From NCBI GenBank assembly GCA_009886115.1, contig VFJJ01000111.1:1-64000 (forward strand): a stretch of 64,000 bases of DNA, read 5' to 3'. Below, one piece after another: positions 40,334 to 49,319 of the stretch. The notes beneath the pieces were generated by a model that did not search any database, was not told the DNA's origin, and saw only the letters and a list, made by a program, of their open reading frames with translations. Position 1 is the first letter of the stretch, and the number at the start of each line of letters is the position of its first letter. A program made the position numbers and the translations under genes. Origin of the DNA: Actinomycetota bacterium (GTDB lineage: Bacteria; Actinomycetota; Acidimicrobiia; IMCC26256; VFJJ01).

Positions 40334-43300
40334 CTAGGCGCTGATCGTCGACGACGCCGTGGGCTGCGAGCTCGTGGTGGCTCCGCTGGTCGTGGTCGTT
40401 GCACCAGAGCGTGTGGTCGTGCTCGCCGAGCGCGTCGACGACGTGGCCGTCGACGACGTGGCCGATGTGCTCGTGGTGGCTCCGCTGGTCGTCGATGGCG
40501 TCGACGATGCCCCGCCGGAGCGGTTGAGCGCGTCGTTGACGTACGTCCTGGCGAGCTCGATCTGCTGCTGGTACGTGCCGAGATCGCCACCATCGAGTGC
40601 CGTCTGGGCAGCAGCGAAGGCGCCGTCGGCCAAGCGCAACAGCTCCTCCACGGTCTCGTCGCCCGTCGTGACCGGAGGCGGCGGCGGTGAACCGGGCGTC
40701 GGCGGGGGTGCGGGAGGACCGGGCGGCGCCGGGGCGGGCGGCGTCCCGTCAACCACAGGCACGTCGCACGTCTCGATCGAGGCGAACTCGGGGAAGCTCT
40801 TGAGCGCCTCGCACAGCGACGACTTCATCACTGCCCCGTCCTTGTAGAACACGGCAACGAATCGAAGGCCGGGGAACTGGGTCTGGCCTTCCGCCTTGAG
40901 GTACACGGGCCGGATGTACAGGATCGAATTCCCGACCGGCACGAGCTGGAGGTTACCCAACTCGACCGAGGAGCCGTTCCCTGCTTGGTTGAGCAAGGTC
41001 AACGTCTCGGAGATCGCTTCGGTGGTCAGGATCTCGTTGCTGGCCTGGGCGGGGCCGAAAACGCGCGGCGTCGCTGGCATCGTATAGGCGCTGATCTCGC
41101 CGTAGCGCTCAGGATCGGAGCGCGCCACCAAGAACGAGACCAGGTTCTGGATACCCCCGTCCTGAGAGACAGGAACAAGCGGCTGCATGATCACATACTG
41201 CTCATCCGGCTCCCCCGGGAGGCGCGTCAGCAGGTAGTACGGGTCCATCCGGTCGGCGGTATTGCTCTCGATCGAGATCGCCTGGCCACCGGCCGTCACC
41301 TCGGTCAGGGGAACGACCCCGCCACCTCCAACACTCCCGCGGAGCGGACCGGTGTCGGGGTCCTGCGCAATAGACCACTGGTCGGAACGGTTGTAGAAGC
41401 CTGCCGGGTCGGTGACGTGGTACGAGGCGAAGATCCCCGACTGCACGCGGAACAGGTCCTCAGGATAACGGAGGTGCTCATTGAGCCCGGCCGGCATCGA
41501 CTCCGGAGAGGTGAACAGGTCGGGGAAGGCATCACGCCAGGCCCGAATCACGGGGTCGCTCTCGTCTACCAAGTAGAACCGCATCGAGCCGTCGTACGAG
41601 TCGACGGTGATCTTCACCGAGTTGCGAACGTAGTTGAACCGTTGGCTGAGCCCGCTGCCGCTCGGCAATCCTCCTGGCACGACAGCCTGGGCGTACGGAT
41701 AGCTCTCAGTGGTCGTATAAGCATCGAGGACCCACACCACCCGGCCGCTCTCGATGATGACGGGGTAGGGGTCGGCGTCGAGCTCGAGGAAGGGTGCCAG
41801 ATCGCGTACCCGGTCGCGGATGTCTCGCTTGATGAGGATACGCGATTCGTCATCGAGGTCGCCCGACAGGAACAATCGGGCATCGAGGAACCGCAAAGCG
41901 AACGCTGTCCGCCGGAAGATGCTCGAGAGCTCGATCCCTCCGCTCCCGGCGTAAGCCGCGGACCCCGTGGCGGTGTCGAGCCCAGGGTCGAACTCGGGGA
42001 GCGCGGTGTTGACCACCGCGTAGTCGTCGAGACGTTCGCCGTAGTACAGGCCCTTCTGATCGAGGGTGATCTCCGGGACCGAGCTGGTCGGAGGCAGATC
42101 CTTGACGAGGAACTCCGGGAGACCACCGTCAGTGACTGCGTTCGCCGGGGCCAGCGCCACGCCTTGACCGTGCGTGTAGACGAGGTGCCTGTTGACCCAC
42201 GACTGGCTCGGAAGCCGATCGAGGTTGATCTCACGCGCAGCGAGGACGGTCTGGGTCAGCTTGCCGTTGATGACGTATCGGTCGACGTCGAGCTGGGAGA
42301 ACCGGTAGAACGCCTTGACCTGCTGGAGGTTCTGCCAGGTGGCGCCCACGAACTCGGGGTCCCAGAGGCGAGCGTTCTGAAGCGTGACGGAGTTCTCGTC
42401 GATGTCTGACGCGGTGAGATCGGCCGAGTAAGGGAACGGTTGCACGTCGATGTCGGCGATGTCGTACGCCGCGCGCGTCGCGTCGATGTTGTAGGCGATG
42501 TACTCGGCCTCACGAGCCTGTTCGCTGGGCTCGACCTTGAAGCGTTGGTAGAGCTGGGGGTAGACGGTGCCGACGGCCAACGAGACGAAGGCCCACAGGC
42601 CGACCGCGATCACGGGTAGAGCGAAGCCGCGCAGGCGGATGTTGACCAGGAACAAGATCACCGCGGCGATCGATATGACGATCAGCAGGCGCAGCGCCGG
42701 GAGCTGCGCGTTCACGTCGGTGGCGGTGGCCCCGTGCACCGCGCCCCGCGTCGAGGTGGTGAGGGCGAAGCGCTCCAGGTAGTACCCCCAGGCCCGCACC
42801 AGCGCGACGAGGGCGAGCAGCACCGACAGATGCACCTTCACCTGGGGGCTGACCCGTTGGAAGGGGCCCTGCACCCGGATGCCGCCGTTCAGGTAGTGAG
42901 CGACGGCCGTCACGATGAGGATGATGATCAGCGACGCGAAGGTCCAGTCGAACACGACCCGATAGAACGGCAGCTTGAAGACGTAGAAGCCGATGTCGCG
43001 GCCGAACTGCGGGTCGTTGACGCCGAAGTCGCCGCCGTGGCGAAAGAGCAGCCACTTCTCCCAGTGCCCGGTGACGCCCACGCCGGCGATGATCGCGAAC
43101 AGCGCCGACAGACCCAGCCGGAGCCGCCCGGCGTACGGTCCGATGAAGCGCCGGTACCGCTCGGTCACGTCTTCCTGGGCGGTGGGGAGGAACCTCGGTG
43201 CGATCCGATCGGCGATCACGAGGTTGCCGAACAACACAACGAAGAACGCGATCATGAAGATCGCAGCGGGAACGAGTCGGGCCTCGATCGACTGCCGCCA

Positions 43301-43541: not shown

Positions 43542-45794
43542 TCACGTCATCGACGCGCGACGGGATCCCACCCTGCGGGACACCTCGTCCGAGGAGCTCG
43601 CCGACCGGGCACCGACCACGAAGCACCGACATCCGGGGTGTGCCGGCGGAAAGGCCTGCCCGGTCGGGAACGGGCATCCCTTGGCGGTGGGCTCGAGCGC
43701 GTTGTCCTCGGCATCGGGGCAGGCGGCCGTCGGATCGACGACCCAGCGCAGCGCGGCGCCCTCGGGGACGGCGTCGTAGCCGCCACGGGCCCATGCGGCG
43801 ACGACCACATCGCGAGACGCGGCGTCGACGCGCTGGGTCTTGAGCTCCCGGTAGTGCGCGCCCAGCCGCTCGCCCACCTGCGACCAGTCGCCGGTGGTGG
43901 GCGCCAGCGCATCCGCGAGGCGCTCACGCAGCGGCAGCACCAGCTCGGACGCGAACGCTGCGGTGAGCTCTCGAGCGACGGCATGGGCATCGACGATCTG
44001 CGAGGCTTCCCCCCCGACCGTGGCGACCCCGGCGCTGTAGGCGTCCTGCACGATGTCGAGGGCCGCCGCCTGGAAGATCCCGAGATGGCGATCGAGCTCG
44101 GGAAGCAGCGTCAGCGCCGGACCGTGCTTCGACCGCCGCAACGCGTGCAACAACTCGTTCTGCTCATCCTGCAGCGAGCGCTTCACCCGCCGAACGAGCC
44201 CGATCACGAGCGGCTCGAGCGCCTCATCGCGCCGGGCCACGAGGACGGCGTCGAACGCGACGTCGACCGTGGTCGGACCGGCGTCGACCGGTGCCTCGGC
44301 GTCCAGGTCGATGGTCACCTCGACCGCCCCGTCGACCGACTGGGGAGCACTGCCGGCGGGCACCGGGGTCTGGTGGCCATCGGAGCTGGTCTGGACCCTG
44401 CTCTCGCGCAACCGCGAGAACAACACGTCGACGGGGTCGGGGATGGTCTCGACCTCGGAGTCGGCAGCCGCCTCGGCTGGCGGCGGCCCACCGGCGTCGA
44501 CCTCGACCTCGACCTCGACGTCGACCTCGACGTCGACCTCGACACCATCGTCCTGTCCCTCGAGCGACGCCGCGTCTTCCAGGGCCACCGCTTGCAGGGC
44601 CACCGCTTCCTGGGCCGTCGGCTCACTCGCCTGCGCGCCCACCTCGACGGACGCCACCTCGACCGGCGTCGGCGCCGCGACCTCGGGCTCGACCCCCGGG
44701 GCTGCTGCGAGCAGCGCCACGAGCGGGGCCAAGGGCTCGGGCTCGACCCCGGCGGCGAGCGCTGCGGCCCGGAGCTGGCCGTCGAAGGCCCTGGTGGGCG
44801 TCGGAGGATCGTCGGCCGCGACCACGGCGATCGGCTGCGTGTCCTCCAGGCCGACGGAACGGACCGGCGTTGTGGGGATCGGGGCCACGTGTCCCATCGC
44901 TGACGAACGGGAGTCGCCGGTGAGTGCCTCTGTCGCCTCGTCGAGGGTCAGCCGGACGATGCGGTAGGCATCGAGCAGCCGATCGCGTCCGGCTCGGAGC
45001 TCGTCGATACGGGCCGTGGCCGCGGCCTTGCGGCGAGCCAGGTCGGTGAGCATCCGCTCCCGGACGGCCTGCGCCTCGACGACCATCTCGCGGCCGGTCG
45101 TTCGAGCGCTCTCGATCTCCAGGACCGACCGCCGCTCGGCTTCGGCCATGAGCTCGCTCGTCCTGAGCTCGGCATCGGTGCGCACCCGTTCGGCGTGGTC
45201 GTCGGCGTCTCGTCGTTCTCGCCGCGCGTACTGGTCGGCCTCGTCCACGATCGCCTGGGCGCGGGCATCGGCCTCGGCGACGGTGTGCTCGAAGGTCGCC
45301 TCGGCCTCGGCCTTCAGGCCCGTGGCGCTCCGTTCGGCCTCGTCACGGATCTCGGCGGCGGCCCCCTCGGCCTGCGCGGTCTTGCGCTCGAGCACGGTGC
45401 GAGCGTCTTCGCGCAGACGCCGAGCCTCGTCCTGCGCCTCACGGACCAGCGCGCTGGCCCGCTCCTCGGCATTGCGCCTGATGTCGTCGGCGGCTTCCTG
45501 CGCCGCACGGAGCACCCGGGTGGTCTCGTCCCCGAGAGCCTGGAGGAGCTGCTCACCCGAGAGGGCAACCCGACCCGCGGCACCCCCGCCTTCGAGCGCA
45601 GCGATCTGGTCCCGGAGCTGGGGCTCGAGCCGTCGAGCCGCCACCAGCTCGGCTCCGACGACCCGGAGCCAATCGCGCACTTCCTGCTCGTCGAGTCCCT
45701 TGCGCGCCGTCGAGAACGAACGGCCGACGATGTCGTCGACCGAGATCTGCCCGGGCGACATCCCGTCTCGGTCAAGCCGGATGTTGGCAGGCAT
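43542..45794 (-). CDS. DivIVA-domain coiled-coil protein with C-terminal phage head morphogenesis (MuF)-like motif
   Basis: DDIVGRSFSTARKGLDEQEVRDWL (DivIVA); long coiled coil; LRW..CPD..PPAHPGCRC. Confidence 0.8.
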   Translation of the reverse strand: MPANIRLDRDGMSPGQISVDDIVGRSFSTARKGLDEQEVRDWLRVVGAELVAARRLEPQLRDQIAALEGGGAAGRVALSGEQLLQALGDETTRVLRAAQEAADDIRRNAEERASALVREAQDEARRLREDARTVLERKTAQAEGAAAEIRDEAERSATGLKAEAEATFEHTVAEADARAQAIVDEADQYARRERRDADDHAERVRTDAELRTSELMAEAERRSVLEIESARTTGREMVVEAQAVRERMLTDLARRKAAATARIDELRAGRDRLLDAYRIVRLTLDEATEALTGDSRSSAMGHVAPIPTTPVRSVGLEDTQPIAVVAADDPPTPTRAFDGQLRAAALAAGVEPEPLAPLVALLAAAPGVEPEVAAPTPVEVASVEVGAQASEPTAQEAVALQAVALEDAASLEGQDDGVEVDVEVDVEVEVEVDAGGPPPAEAAADSEVETIPDPVDVLFSRLRESRVQTSSDGHQTPVPAGSAPQSVDGAVEVTIDLDAEAPVDAGPTTVDVAFDAVLVARRDEALEPLVIGLVRRVKRSLQDEQNELLHALRRSKHGPALTLLPELDRHLGIFQAAALDIVQDAYSAGVATVGGEASQIVDAHAVARELTAAFASELVLPLRERLADALAPTTGDWSQVGERLGAHYRELKTQRVDAASRDVVVAAWARGGYDAVPEGAALRWVVDPTAACPDAEDNALEPTAKGCPFPTGQAFPPAHPGCRCFVVGARSASSSDEVSRRVGSRRASMT

Positions 45795-45956
45795 GGCGAT
45801 TCCCCTTGCGGAGTGTGCCGCGGCACGTGCCCCAGCAGGGGCGCGCGTCCGCGGAACCGAGTTCGGTCCCCATCCTCCGCCTTGGCCCAGACTCATGGTA
45901 CGACGATCGACCGGGGGAATGGCGGACACTTCGCCGATCTCGGCGTCAGCCCGTCA

Positions 45957-47231
45957 TCACCCCCTGAGGATGCCTGCGCACAACTCCTCGGCCTCGGTCA
46001 GCGATGGTAGGCCCGTCGTGTCACCGCCGACGCTCCGGATGACCTCGATCGCTTCGGGAAGGGTGGCCACACCGTAGACGGGCATGTCGCCGGCCTGCTT
46101 CTCGGCCTCGGCCACCTCGCCGAGCGGGACGAGCATGGCGACGGCGCCGGCGCGTCGGGCGGCGACGGCCTTCTGCTTGACGCCGCCAACGTCCTGGATC
46201 TCGCAGTTGATGCCGATGGCCCCGGTGACAGCCACCGTCTGGCCACCGGTGAGCTCGCCCTCGGTGAGCTCGTCGATGAGGCCCAGCGTGAACGCCAAAC
46301 CCGCCGACGGGCCCCCCACCCTGCCGGTGTCGATCGAGATCGTGTACGGAACGTCGATGTCGAAGTCGCGGGTCTGCGGGGCGATCCCGATGATGGCCCG
46401 CCTGACGCCGGTCTCCTCGTCCACGACCTCCCGCAAGGCCACCGACTCGGTGAGCGTCTCGGGCTCGTCCGCATCGGCAATGAAGCGCTCGAACGTGATG
46501 TCCACGACGTCGCCGGGCTGGCGGCCGGCCAGGATCGGCCCGATGTCGGAGTCGATGGCGACGGGCTGCCCGTCGATAGCCACAATCGTGTCCCCCAATG
46601 CCAGCACGGTTGCCGACGGCGCCTCGGGATCGAGATCGACGATGGTCACCCCCGTTCCCTTGAAGCCGAATTCGCGCCCGAGGTACGCCAAGGCCACGAC
46701 CTCGGCCTTGAGCTTCGAGTCGTCGATCTGGAGACGCCCCTGCTCGCGGATCTCCCGGCGCGACTGCCCCCCGGTGAAGCGCTCTTCGGGGACGATGTCG
46801 ACGGTGTCGTCGAGCTTGGCCCGGAGCCACTGGATGCGCCGGAGCCGATCGCTCGAGATCGAGACCGTCAGGTACAAGAATTCGCCCTGGGGCTCGAACG
46901 ACGGCGTCCCTTCGATCGACAGGTGAGGGTTGACCGGCTCGGCCCGGCGGGGCGACACGGCCACGTACTTCGTGGGCAACAGCGCCAGGATCACCAACGC
47001 CAACACCATGGCGACGCCGCTGATCGCCATCACCCGACGCCGGAGATTCCGACGGCGCTCGGCCGGGCTCGGCGTGGGGGCGAAGGCGGGGAACGGCCAC
47101 GGGGACGCGGCTCCGGCCGCTCCGCGGCCGTTCGCACTGTCGTCGATCGTGTCGGTACCGACGGTGTCGCTGGCCGTACCCGTGTTCGACCCGTCGTGGG
47201 CCGCGCCGGTCTCACTCGCGATCTCGGTCAT
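45957..47231 (-). CDS. PDZ + Lon-type protease domain membrane protein (YlbL/SdrC-like)
   Basis: GGPSAGLAF, VAVTGAI, VGGVKQK Ser-Lys dyad; central PDZ. Confidence 0.9.
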   Translation of the reverse strand: MTEIASETGAAHDGSNTGTASDTVGTDTIDDSANGRGAAGAASPWPFPAFAPTPSPAERRRNLRRRVMAISGVAMVLALVILALLPTKYVAVSPRRAEPVNPHLSIEGTPSFEPQGEFLYLTVSISSDRLRRIQWLRAKLDDTVDIVPEERFTGGQSRREIREQGRLQIDDSKLKAEVVALAYLGREFGFKGTGVTIVDLDPEAPSATVLALGDTIVAIDGQPVAIDSDIGPILAGRQPGDVVDITFERFIADADEPETLTESVALREVVDEETGVRRAIIGIAPQTRDFDIDVPYTISIDTGRVGGPSAGLAFTLGLIDELTEGELTGGQTVAVTGAIGINCEIQDVGGVKQKAVAARRAGAVAMLVPLGEVAEAEKQAGDMPVYGVATLPEAIEVIRSVGGDTTGLPSLTEAEELCAGILRG

Positions 47232-47384
47232 CGCTCGCAGTCTCCCAGATCGCCACGAGGCCCCCGGACGCGGGGCGGCAGGTATCGTCCCGTTGTGGCC
47301 CGAAGGATCAGGCAGGAGACGACCCGGCGGTACGCCACGGTCGGCAGTTGGCGTGGATGGGGCGGATGGCGCTTCAACCGACGC

Positions 47385-47537
47385 ATGCCCCGGCTCCACC
47401 TCCTCCCCTGGCCCATCGCGCTCACGCTCCTCGTGGTGCTCACCATCGTCCTGGGGCGCATTCTCGGCAGCGTGGCCATCGAGGTGTTCCGGTACATCGG
47501 CGACTTCGCATCGAAGGCCCTGTCGGGATCGAGATGA
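47385..47537 (+). CDS. Small hydrophobic membrane protein (50 aa)
   Basis: MPRLHLLPWPIALTLLVVLTIVLGRILG...; stop overlaps the next ATG (ATGA). Confidence 0.5.
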   Translation: MPRLHLLPWPIALTLLVVLTIVLGRILGSVAIEVFRYIGDFASKALSGSR

Positions 47538-48271
47538 CCGCGCCCGAGCGCCACCGCGCCATCGACCGGGCCGCCACGATCGCGGCCCTCGGCCACGCCG
47601 GCGCCCAGACCCCAGGTGCCAGCCCCATCGACGACCCGGCCGACAGATCCGCCGACGCCGAGTTGGCGCGGGCGCTCACCGACGACCCCGACGAGCGGGT
47701 CCGGGCCGTCGCCCTCGGAGCGCTCGTGCGCCGGGACGGGAACCGCCAGGGCACGGCGCCCCGACCGGCGACGACGGAGCTGTGGATGCATGCGATCGCC
47801 GACTCGTCGGCCCGGGTGCGCCGCATCGCAGCCGAGGTGGTTCCGGCTGGAGGGTTCCCGGCAGCTCCCCTGCTCGCGCTCCTCGACGATCCCGATGCCC
47901 TGGTGGCCGAGGCGGCCGCCTTCGCCCTCGGTGAGCTCGGCGACGACGCCGTCGAAGCTGGAGCCGTCGGGGCCCTGGCACAGGTGGCTGCTGCGCCTGG
48001 GCACCCCGATCCGCTGGTGCGCGAGGCGGCGATCGCTGCGCTGGGTTCGCTCGGCCATCCTGACGGTCTCGACGCCATCCTGGCGGGGTGTCGCGACCGC
48101 CCAGCGGTCCGGCGCCGCGCGGTGCTGGCGTTGGCGCCGTTCGAGGGCAGCGCAGTCGACGAGGCCATCGAGCGGGCTTCCGTCGACAAGGACTGGCAGG
48201 TCAGGCAGGTGGCAGCCGACCTTCGCGGGGCGACGGGCGGCGGTTCTCGGGCGGAACCACCTGGCGGTTGA
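47534..48271 (+). CDS. HEAT-repeat protein
   Basis: Repeated DPDERVRAVA / DPLVREAAIAALG / DKDWQVRQ units. Confidence 0.85.
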   Translation: MTAPERHRAIDRAATIAALGHAGAQTPGASPIDDPADRSADAELARALTDDPDERVRAVALGALVRRDGNRQGTAPRPATTELWMHAIADSSARVRRIAAEVVPAGGFPAAPLLALLDDPDALVAEAAAFALGELGDDAVEAGAVGALAQVAAAPGHPDPLVREAAIAALGSLGHPDGLDAILAGCRDRPAVRRRAVLALAPFEGSAVDEAIERASVDKDWQVRQVAADLRGATGGGSRAEPPGG

Positions 48272-48281
48272 GCCGAGGTCG

Positions 48282-49319
48282 TCAGCCCGACGAACGTCCA
48301 CCCGAGCCGTGCCGGGGGGGCTGGCTCCCCATGAACATCGACCGCAGCGTGTCGAACGATTCGAGGCACCGGCCCGCGCCGCGCACCACGGTCTCGAGCG
48401 GCGATGCGACGTAGTGGACCGGGAGGTTGGTGTCGCGGGCGATCCGTTCGTCGATGCCCCGGAGCATGGCCCCGCCGCCGACGAGGTTGACGCCGTGGAA
48501 GATGAGGTCTTGCGCCAACTCCGGCGGGGCTTGGGCGAGGCACCGGACCACGGCGTCGCACATGGCGTTGACCGGCTCCTGGATGGCCTCGCGGACCTCG
48601 TCGGGGCGGAGCACGATCGTCTTCGGGAGACCGCTCGTGAGGTCGCGCCCTCGCACCTCGGCCCGATAGTCGTCGGCCACCGGATAGGCCGAGCCGATCG
48701 CCAGCTTCACGTCCTCAGCCGTGCGCTCACCGATCGCGACCCCGTGTTGGCGACGGACCCAGGTCTGGATGGCGGCGTCGATGTCGAACGAACCGACCCG
48801 CACGGCCTCCAGCGCGACGACCCCGCCCAACGAGATGACAGCCACCTCGGTGGTGCCCCCGCCGATGTCGACCACCATGTTCCCGATCGGCTCGTGGATC
48901 GGCAGCTCAGCCCCGATGGCCGCGGCCATCGGTTGCTCGATGAGATAGGTGGCGGCTGCGCCCGCGCTGCGCGCGGCCTCGAGGACGGCGCGCTGCTCGA
49001 CAGCGGTGATCGCCGACGGGACGCAGATGAGGATCCGGGCCCGGTTGAGCCGGCTCACGTTGGCCCGCTGCAACAGCAGCCGGATCATGCGCTGGGTGAT
49101 GTTGTAGTCGGTGATCGCGCCCTTGCGCAGAGGACGCACGGCCACGATGTAGCCCGGCGTGCGCCCGATCATCTGCCAGGCCTCGTGGCCCATCGCCAGC
49201 ACTTCCTGCGAACGGCTGTTGAGCGCAATGACCGTGGGCTCGTTGAGGATGATGCCCTCACCGCGCGCGTAGATCAGGGTGTTCGCGGTACCGAGGTCAA
49301 TCGCCAGATCACGGGGCAT
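48282..49319 (-). CDS. mreB: Rod shape-determining actin homolog MreB
   Basis: DLGTANT, RPLRKGAI, DIGGGTTE, GGGAML. Confidence 0.93.
   Translation of the reverse strand: MPRDLAIDLGTANTLIYARGEGIILNEPTVIALNSRSQEVLAMGHEAWQMIGRTPGYIVAVRPLRKGAITDYNITQRMIRLLLQRANVSRLNRARILICVPSAITAVEQRAVLEAARSAGAAATYLIEQPMAAAIGAELPIHEPIGNMVVDIGGGTTEVAVISLGGVVALEAVRVGSFDIDAAIQTWVRRQHGVAIGERTAEDVKLAIGSAYPVADDYRAEVRGRDLTSGLPKTIVLRPDEVREAIQEPVNAMCDAVVRCLAQAPPELAQDLIFHGVNLVGGGAMLRGIDERIARDTNLPVHYVASPLETVVRGAGRCLESFDTLRSMFMGSQPPRHGSGGRSSG

Follow-up and report, generated by a model that had tools for sequence, protein, structure and literature searches.

How does a protein that begins like the bacterial scaffold DivIVA come to end like a minor head protein of a phage, and what could such a protein do in a cell? 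The question is raised by a gene at positions 43542–45794 of a 64,000-nucleotide stretch of DNA from an actinobacterium of the class Acidimicrobiia (contig VFJJ01000111.1 of assembly GCA_009886115.1; the whole stretch is referred to below as the window). Members of this class are abundant in soils and waters and have been little studied. A first-pass annotation, made from the letters of the window, had described the product as a DivIVA polar-growth protein fused to a domain resembling the phage head-morphogenesis proteins MuF and SPP1 gp7. Our analysis leaves it practically certain that the gene is real and encodes a DivIVA paralogue. Its architecture and conservation are solid and unexpected, and its function is one that we wholly infer. 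The best overall explanation, to which we give roughly even chances, is that of a DivIVA-type scaffold presenting a MuF-derived docking module to the envelope quality-control machinery.

Architecture and conservation of the fusion protein

The fusion gene is a single stop-free open reading frame (ORF) on the minus strand, encoding 750 amino acids in the window translation. On the plus strand there is no open frame over 43542–45794, the translation being broken by stops; but for the strand, what the first-pass annotation described holds. An alternative longer frame of 795 aa opens with a GTG at 45929. The ATG at 45794 is the likelier start, because a Shine-Dalgarno-like AAGGGG lies a few bases upstream and most of 24 aligned full-length homologues start at about this position. 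The layout that had been read from the sequence is borne out, in that the DivIVA head, the helical stalk, the acidic linker with its VEVD repeats and the C-terminal motif were each found (Table 1).

At E≤1e-3, a word-indexed search with the C-terminal part of the protein returned 186 homologues. Of the 120 listed, nearly all also have a DivIVA domain, and those with source names are Acidimicrobiia. An exhaustive profile search, in which each representative stands for a 50%-identity cluster, found 1,139 representatives at E≤1e-30 and 3,688 at E≤1e-3. In an alignment of 27 full-length relatives, 25 of which are matched by the DivIVA family PF05103, the C-terminal domain and the end of the stalk (R235, A241, R245, L252, R255, L266 and R270) are strongly conserved. 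Proline is absent from residues 61–295. The linker differs in length and sequence among the relatives, and its columns are mostly gapped and unconserved. It contains, besides the (VE/VD) run, a second tandem repeat (44576–44616, minus strand) with a 15-nt period and 2.7 copies, which codes for AVALQ/AVALE. A conserved island within the linker, VDxLFxRLR, looks like a linear docking motif for some partner.

The C-terminal motif of the fusion protein reads LRWVVDPTAACPDAEDNALE...FPTGQAFPPAHPGCRC, and the 217-residue C-terminal domain terminates in LRWVVD...ACPDAEDN...FPTGQAFPPAHPGCRC. In the family the motif takes the form W...C-x2-[C/A]...PPAHPGCRC. For the counts that follow, 265 family proteins were fetched and the 263 with a terminal [H/Y]xxC[R/K]C anchor were aligned, two being dropped. 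The Trp of the knuckle and both final Cys are present in all 263 proteins, and the His in 259, with Tyr in the remaining four. At least one Cys of the first knuckle is likewise kept in 263 of 263, as C..C (144 proteins), C..A (112), S..C (6) or C..G (1). This conservation pattern would fit a putative Cys3His or Cys4 metal site. The first-pass annotation had staked its reading on the retention of W..C..PPxHPxCRC among orthologues, and the motif is indeed kept throughout the 263-protein alignment.

A six-frame search with PF05103 revealed two DivIVA-domain genes in the source genome. Besides the fusion gene, there is a canonical divIVA on contig C193, located in a murB-ftsQ-ftsZ-ylmD-ylmE-sepF-divIVA cluster with ileS adjoining on the opposite strand. 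This canonical DivIVA is unusually long (612 aa; locus L148, 6060–7898), and a Pfam scan shows no domain in it other than DivIVA. The two proteins match by BLASTP in the stalk only (E=6e-4), and against the Wag31 equivalog model NF050102 of NCBIfam the fusion protein scores 46.7 bits vs a cut-off of 260; its weak Wag31 match spans residues 30–260. The fusion protein is a second, very divergent DivIVA paralogue. That it could be the cell's main DivIVA was ruled out, as the DivIVA of the division cluster is another gene on C193. Of the label "DivIVA polar-growth protein", the DivIVA domain stands (39 bits), whereas the polar-growth role was overstated in view of the canonical DivIVA in the ftsZ-sepF cluster. 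Like DivIVA, Wag31 and GpsB (PF05103), the fusion protein has an N-terminal DivIVA domain over threshold followed by a long helical stalk; unlike them, it is encoded outside the division cluster and carries a folded C-terminal domain. An mreB gene (48282–49319, minus strand; Pfam E=2.4e-126) lies three genes upstream and adjoins in 10 of 75 related loci. This is a lineage with MreB plus two DivIVA-type proteins.

Relationship of the C-terminal domain to phage MuF proteins

An AlphaFold2 model of the C-terminal domain, based on a 31-sequence alignment, reached a pLDDT of 92.8 and a pTM of 0.90. In a Foldseek search against predicted viral structures, a comparison of predicted with predicted models as are all our MuF fold comparisons, it matched 43 models at E≤1e-3, the highest TMq being 0.77. 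Of the top 50 rows, 24 are named, and these include 15 head-morphogenesis, minor-capsid or MuF-like proteins, one each of portal protein, capsid maturation protease and minor structural protein, and two large toxin-named proteins. A profile of the domain detected 66 loci in viral contigs. Enclosing ORFs were extracted from 29 of these, and all 19 that were scanned with Pfam contain Phage_Mu_F (PF04233), 17 exceeding the Pfam cut-off and three being portal-MuF fusions. At nine stand-alone viral MuF loci that were checked, a portal gene lies directly upstream in seven, and a large terminase is present in six.

Comparing the cellular profile with 13 viral MuF proteins, hhalign gave a probability of 99.0% and E=3.5e-18 over 199 columns; this viral set had been fetched with the cellular family's own motif, so that the comparison is not independent. 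The columns W ... C/H-x2-C/H ... CRC are likewise invariant in the viral set, and hhalign links the same 13 proteins to a profile of the SPP1 gp7 clade that was built independently (E=7.3e-11). PF04233 itself weakly matches five of the 27 full-length relatives (best E=9.2e-4) and three of 31 isolated domains, and in one orthologue from outside the class Phage_Mu_F is matched over model positions 3–111 of 112 (E=9.7e-4). A language-model search returned, at rank 14 with a score of 0.91, a cluster that is 28% PF04233 and 52% viral. Likeness to phage MuF, without which the first-pass annotation would fall, was found between profiles and, for the whole domain, between predicted structures. Among the phage proteins, MuF occurs fused to a portal domain (L083, L101), to a portal and a 2',5'-RNA-ligase-like domain in a protein of 1026 aa (L132), and, in L130, together with a weak, sub-threshold match to a GNAT acetyltransferase.

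Several results weigh against this assignment. When everything from the invariant Trp onward was cut from both alignments, hhalign returned a probability of 1.7% (E=0.03); the sequence likeness to MuF resides in the final ~49 residues alone. Folded by itself, the helical part (pLDDT 92.9) found no Foldseek match among the viral models at E≤1e-3, the best being 0.018. PF04233 did not match the fusion protein at E≤1 (Pfam gathering threshold 29.6 bits), and with the same model nothing was found in a six-frame search of the source genome or in a search of 81 Actinomycetota genomes. The hhalign probability was 0.2% against SPP1 gp7 and 0.4% against a 20-sequence profile of the gp7 clade, and SPP1 gp7 searched against viral contigs recovered SPP1 itself alone. 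Because these direct matches fail while the viral intermediates match the gp7 clade, the link of the fusion domain to gp7 is only transitive. MuF-domain proteins were absent from the PDB matches in profile, Foldseek and VIA-align searches. Foldseek gave nothing below E=1e-2, its matches being designed helical bundles, and in a wide VIA-align search the matches were designed bundles, dynamin-like stalks and ATP synthase subunit a, with Z values, 10.3 at most, that are too low to carry meaning for helical proteins. The best PDB profile match was ZorA (E=0.0017), confined to the helical part; it was dismissed as a composition or helix match.

Such results would be expected if the likeness had arisen by convergence, that is, if a small metal-binding knuckle had been acquired independently by an ordinary helical bundle without common MuF ancestry. 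The loss of sequence significance without the last ~49 residues, the lack of a significant fold match for the helical part alone, the generic helical bundles in the PDB and the missing match to the gp7 clade all speak for this explanation. It has to account, however, for the W, C-x2-C, G-x-F and PPAHPGCRC elements that are shared in the same order, at the C-terminus, after four long helices, and for the fact that Pfam's independent model touches several family members. Moreover, MuF proteins still head the list of viral models when the knuckle is left out (TMq 0.65–0.76, rmsd 3.7–3.8 Å in the best superpositions), 20 of the top 50 targets are shared with the list for the whole domain, and 16 of the 50 have head-morphogenesis, minor-capsid or portal names. 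We regard convergence as improbable. The knuckle is very probably homologous to that of the C-x2-C...PPAHPGCRC branch of MuF, and on the strength of the models we think it likely, with less assurance, that the entire 217-aa domain is homologous to MuF.

The motif had also been taken as a hallmark of MuF/SPP1 gp7 proteins in general. This is correct for one MuF branch and incorrect for the SPP1 gp7 clade, whose invariant columns keep only W...H...CRC. SPP1 gp7 belongs to the Pfam family of the viral intermediates, as does Mu gpF, the name-giving MuF protein, and it keeps W ... CRC at the domain end; unlike the fusion family, it has D-x-R-T-R-x-x-H in place of C-P-D-[C/A] and NCRC in place of HPGCRC.

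Distribution, origin and genomic setting

The first-pass annotation had suggested following the fusion across taxa. In a genome profile search, the domain was found in 78 of 121 genomes of the class, representing 59 of 71 genera and including 27 of the 28 genomes of the same order. With the exception of one genome, each positive class genome has one copy, and the main gap is a single family of ~1.1-Mb genomes (0 of 27). Outside the class, the fusion family is present in 6 of 186 other Actinomycetota genomes, one of which (G258) is flagged as unpublished and was used for the count only. Three out-of-class copies or sets comprise one with a clear DivIVA head, one with a weak DivIVA match together with a weak full-length Phage_Mu_F match, and one tandem pair. 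The tandem pair (G003; L157, 6732–9426, minus strand) consists of MuF-like genes of 469 and 448 aa with a DivIVA signal that is faint at most, directly upstream of UPF0182. At locus L029 there is a 360-aa ORF without detectable DivIVA. In 8 of the 78 positive class genomes (G126, G158, G083, G087, G108, G117, G121 and G085) the profile match ends at about position 160–169 of 220 and so takes in just the helical part, and some lineages may have lost the Cys/His knuckle or have a strongly altered one. Taken as a whole, this is a single-copy core gene, vertically inherited in most Acidimicrobiia and a few other Actinomycetota.

In a maximum-likelihood tree of 54 domains, the 35 cellular and 19 viral copies are split by one branch (support 100/95). 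The cellular copies form one clade, which fits a single origin. Since the tree has no root, the direction of transfer cannot be read from it, a point against the capture scenario. Judged from the distribution only, with MuF very widespread in phages and narrowly spread in cells, a single capture from a phage is the most likely source of the domain.

The gene order is conserved as well. Downstream of the fusion gene and on the same strand, a gene for the membrane protein UPF0182 is found in 74 of 75 related loci, and a gene for a PDZ-Lon-type protease lies upstream in 67; most of the misses concern matches near a contig end. In three of three out-of-class genomes examined the fusion gene is also directly upstream of UPF0182. 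The gap between the two genes is about 3–100 bp (median 39, n=29), with the starts taken as equivalents of residue 1 of the window's fusion protein rather than as confirmed start codons. Five terminator-like sites were predicted between 40000 and 49500, none of them in the gaps flanking the fusion gene. No phage family was detected among the 23 window ORFs scanned with Pfam, and this, together with the neighbour order kept in 75 loci, confirms the housekeeping setting without prophage that had been noted at first. A prophage remnant was ruled out by the housekeeping synteny in the 75 loci and the single copy across the class.

Other genes nearby encode MreB, MoaE, an HtrA-type protease, a zincin-like peptidase and SufBD. 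A 373-aa ORF without Pfam or PADLOC match (47440–48561, minus strand) lies between PDZ-Lon and MreB, and its 5' end runs into the MreB frame; in 33 of the 75 loci a relative is located upstream of PDZ-Lon. The zincin-like metallopeptidase (PF10103; 52503–53993, plus strand) is a few genes off. We take the PDZ-Lon/UPF0182/zincin region to resemble the mycobacterial Rv3194c-Rv3193c-Rv3195 region, which presumably lacks a DivIVA-MuF gene.

Table 1. Coordinates of the fusion gene, its parts and its two immediate neighbours in the window.
Feature	Position	Strand	Evidence and remarks
Whole gene, DivIVA-MuF-like fusion protein, 750 aa	43542..45794	-	Open frame; stop codon 43542-43544
DivIVA N-terminal domain, residues 18-141	45372..45743	-	Pfam PF05103, E=9.5e-10, 39 bits vs cut-off 28; recovered by the same model in the six-frame genome search
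Helical stalk, residues 142-295	44910..45371	-	Weak helical matches, to Wag31 and apolipoprotein-like
Acidic Pro/Ala/Val-rich linker, residues 296-513	44256..44909	-	18.7% D+E, 3.2% K+R, 11.4% Pro
Tandem repeat coding for the (VE/VD) run in the linker	44495..44543	-	12-nt period, 4.1 copies, 94% matches
Conserved linker island VDxLFxRLR, residues 455-463	44406..44432	-	Of 27 proteins, all have F459 and R463, and at least 90% have V455 and L458
MuF-like C-terminal domain, residues 514-730; small strand/knuckle element after four long helices	43605..44255	-	AlphaFold2, Foldseek, hhalign, profile search
Trp and Cys/His knuckle (W684, C692, H719, C722, C724), putative metal site	43623..43745	-	Conservation in 263 proteins
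UPF0182 membrane protein, 1044 aa	40334..43468	-	Pfam PF03699, E=2.7e-269; 73 bp downstream of the fusion gene
PDZ-Lon-type protease	45957..47399	-	Pfam Lon_C E=9.2e-10, PDZ_2 E=1.5e-6; upstream of the fusion gene; start codon uncertain

UPF0182 has 7 predicted transmembrane helices here, all within the first ~305 residues (hydropathy), and its predicted cytoplasmic exposure amounts to an 11-residue N-terminus and short loops. Its C-terminal ~190 residues (40334–40900, minus strand) form a Pro-rich stretch followed by a long Ser/Thr-rich tail past the Pfam domain, which by composition looks like an extracytoplasmic, possibly glycosylated linker. According to a 2026 preprint (bioRxiv 10.1101/2025.11.14.688347), UPF0182 is universal in Actinobacteria, combines 7 transmembrane helices with a periplasmic dome, is predicted to be a tetramer, shows a phenotypic correlation with FtsH/YccA and has only recently been tied to FtsH-dependent membrane-protein quality control. 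The UPF0182 phenotypes that it reports are polymyxin B sensitivity and macrolide resistance.

A candidate docking function and its alternatives

DivIVA heads bind the inner face of curved membranes, and DivIVA stalks oligomerise. By analogy, the fusion protein would be a cytoplasmic DivIVA-type scaffold whose head and stalk oligomerise on the inner membrane face, and its long acidic tether would keep the MuF-like domain at a distance of tens of nanometres from this scaffold. The knuckle of the domain would bind a metal ion, probably zinc, and the domain as such may act as a docking module for a large partner, as phage MuF does on the portal oligomer. A single activity has been characterised for a MuF protein, and that is portal binding: its strong attachment to the portal brings SPP1 gp7 into the procapsid (PMC6316719 and PMC5576092). 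The portal-MuF fusions and the adjacency of portal and MuF genes in the viral relatives agree with such binding. In the cell, the partner would most likely be the adjacent envelope quality-control machinery, namely UPF0182, with its link to FtsH/YccA, and perhaps PDZ-Lon. We propose a scaffold-borne adaptor for envelope quality control because MuF binds portals and because the adjacency to UPF0182 is equally fixed.

This proposal has evident weak points. Gene adjacency is the sole evidence for a partnership with UPF0182, and docking directly on UPF0182 would find little surface, because the protein exposes little to the cytoplasm. Membrane binding of the fusion protein is assumed, and the putative membrane-binding loop of its DivIVA domain reads A-R-K, where B. 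subtilis DivIVA presumably has F-R. A complex prediction of the MuF-like domain (31-row alignment) with residues 1–330 of UPF0182 (30-row alignment) scored 0.00 in two runs without controls and is uninformative either way. A functional link between the fusion protein and UPF0182 is therefore put forward tentatively, at somewhat less than even chances, and direct binding of the two seems unlikely. Equally unlikely in our estimate is the most far-reaching version, in which an ancestor of the Acidimicrobiia captured a phage portal-docking module once and joined it to a curvature-sensing DivIVA scaffold that would now position or regulate the UPF0182/FtsH complex, and perhaps PDZ-Lon, at defined sites of the envelope.

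The knuckle and the scaffold might also serve other purposes. Of these, the first-pass annotation had raised DNA anchoring, metal or redox sensing and a phage-assembly decoy, none of which found support in our tests. If the MuF-like domain bound DNA, the DivIVA part might tether the chromosome to the membrane or the pole. RacA and DivIVA of Bacillus provide a precedent for tethering DNA to the pole, segregation factors are among the proteins that DivIVA recruits, nucleic acids are common ligands of Cys/His knuckles, and the title of Stiege et al. 2003 reportedly describes SPP1 gp7 as DNA-binding. The domain has no basic character, however (13.4% D+E vs 10.6% K+R), and no par, smc or other chromosome-handling gene is found among the conserved neighbours, where the conserved partners are envelope proteins, and we therefore hold DNA anchoring to be a rather improbable role. 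Alternatively, the knuckle might be a thiol or metal switch that responds to redox state or to metal availability and controls the neighbouring proteases or quality-control system, a role to which its three or four invariant Cys/His residues would be suited, as would the neighbouring envelope-stress and proteolysis genes and the Suf Fe-S assembly cluster a few kb away. Yet Suf genes adjoin in only 11 of the 75 loci, and phage head proteins, in which the knuckle more plausibly has a structural role, keep it without variation; we consider a switch very unlikely.

A defence function had been raised by the first-pass annotation, which saw a possible phage-assembly decoy. The domain would then bind the portals of incoming or assembling phages and sequester them at the membrane, an idea that draws on portal binding as the sole characterised MuF activity and on the portal-MuF fusions and gene adjacency of the viral relatives. 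What argues against it is that the gene is a single-copy core gene in a fixed order with envelope genes, unlike patchy mobile defence genes, that its motif is near-invariant rather than diversifying, and that PADLOC-DB gave 0 families at E≤0.01 for the fusion gene, UPF0182, PDZ-Lon and the upstream 373-aa ORF. We give this reading hardly any weight. The DivIVA-type scaffold with a docking module for envelope quality control thus remains the explanation that we prefer.

Compared with phage MuF proteins of the C-x2-C...PPAHPGCRC branch (PF04233), the cellular domain has the same Trp and Cys/His knuckle, the same succession of four helices and knuckle, and a similar length. In contrast to phage MuF genes, the fusion gene belongs to a cell, is inherited vertically as a single copy and has neither a portal nor a terminase gene near it, and its domain sits behind DivIVA instead of being stand-alone, portal-fused or followed by a toxin. 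The cellular protein also stays below the Pfam threshold, its second knuckle Cys is replaced by Ala in 112 of the 263 proteins, and a nearly invariant Asp aligns with the invariant Glu of the viral helix motif. PMC5576092 describes MuF polymorphic toxins and portal-MuF fusions of temperate phages, which resemble the fusion protein in using MuF as a modular adaptor joined to other domains. In those proteins a toxin or enzyme is attached to a MuF domain that stands at the N-terminus or after the portal, whereas here MuF is itself the C-terminal cargo, and the Pfam scan detected no toxin domain in the fusion protein. Full-text literature searches, judged by titles, turned up no paper on a DivIVA-MuF fusion, and a full-text search for Acidimicrobiia and DivIVA was empty. 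The Phage_Mu_F literature, again going by titles, deals with phages, prophages and toxins or, in two cases, with databases or comparative genomics, and includes no such fusion.

MuF is among the commonest phage head proteins, and PMC5576092 describes its function as unknown. A cellular, core-genome copy of MuF under strong constraint is an unusual handle on this function. If our reading is true, a phage structural module would have been taken over for housekeeping, the MuF domain would gain its first cellular function and the UPF0182 family its first cytoplasmic partner, and the Acidimicrobiia would have two DivIVA-type systems, the canonical one and this.

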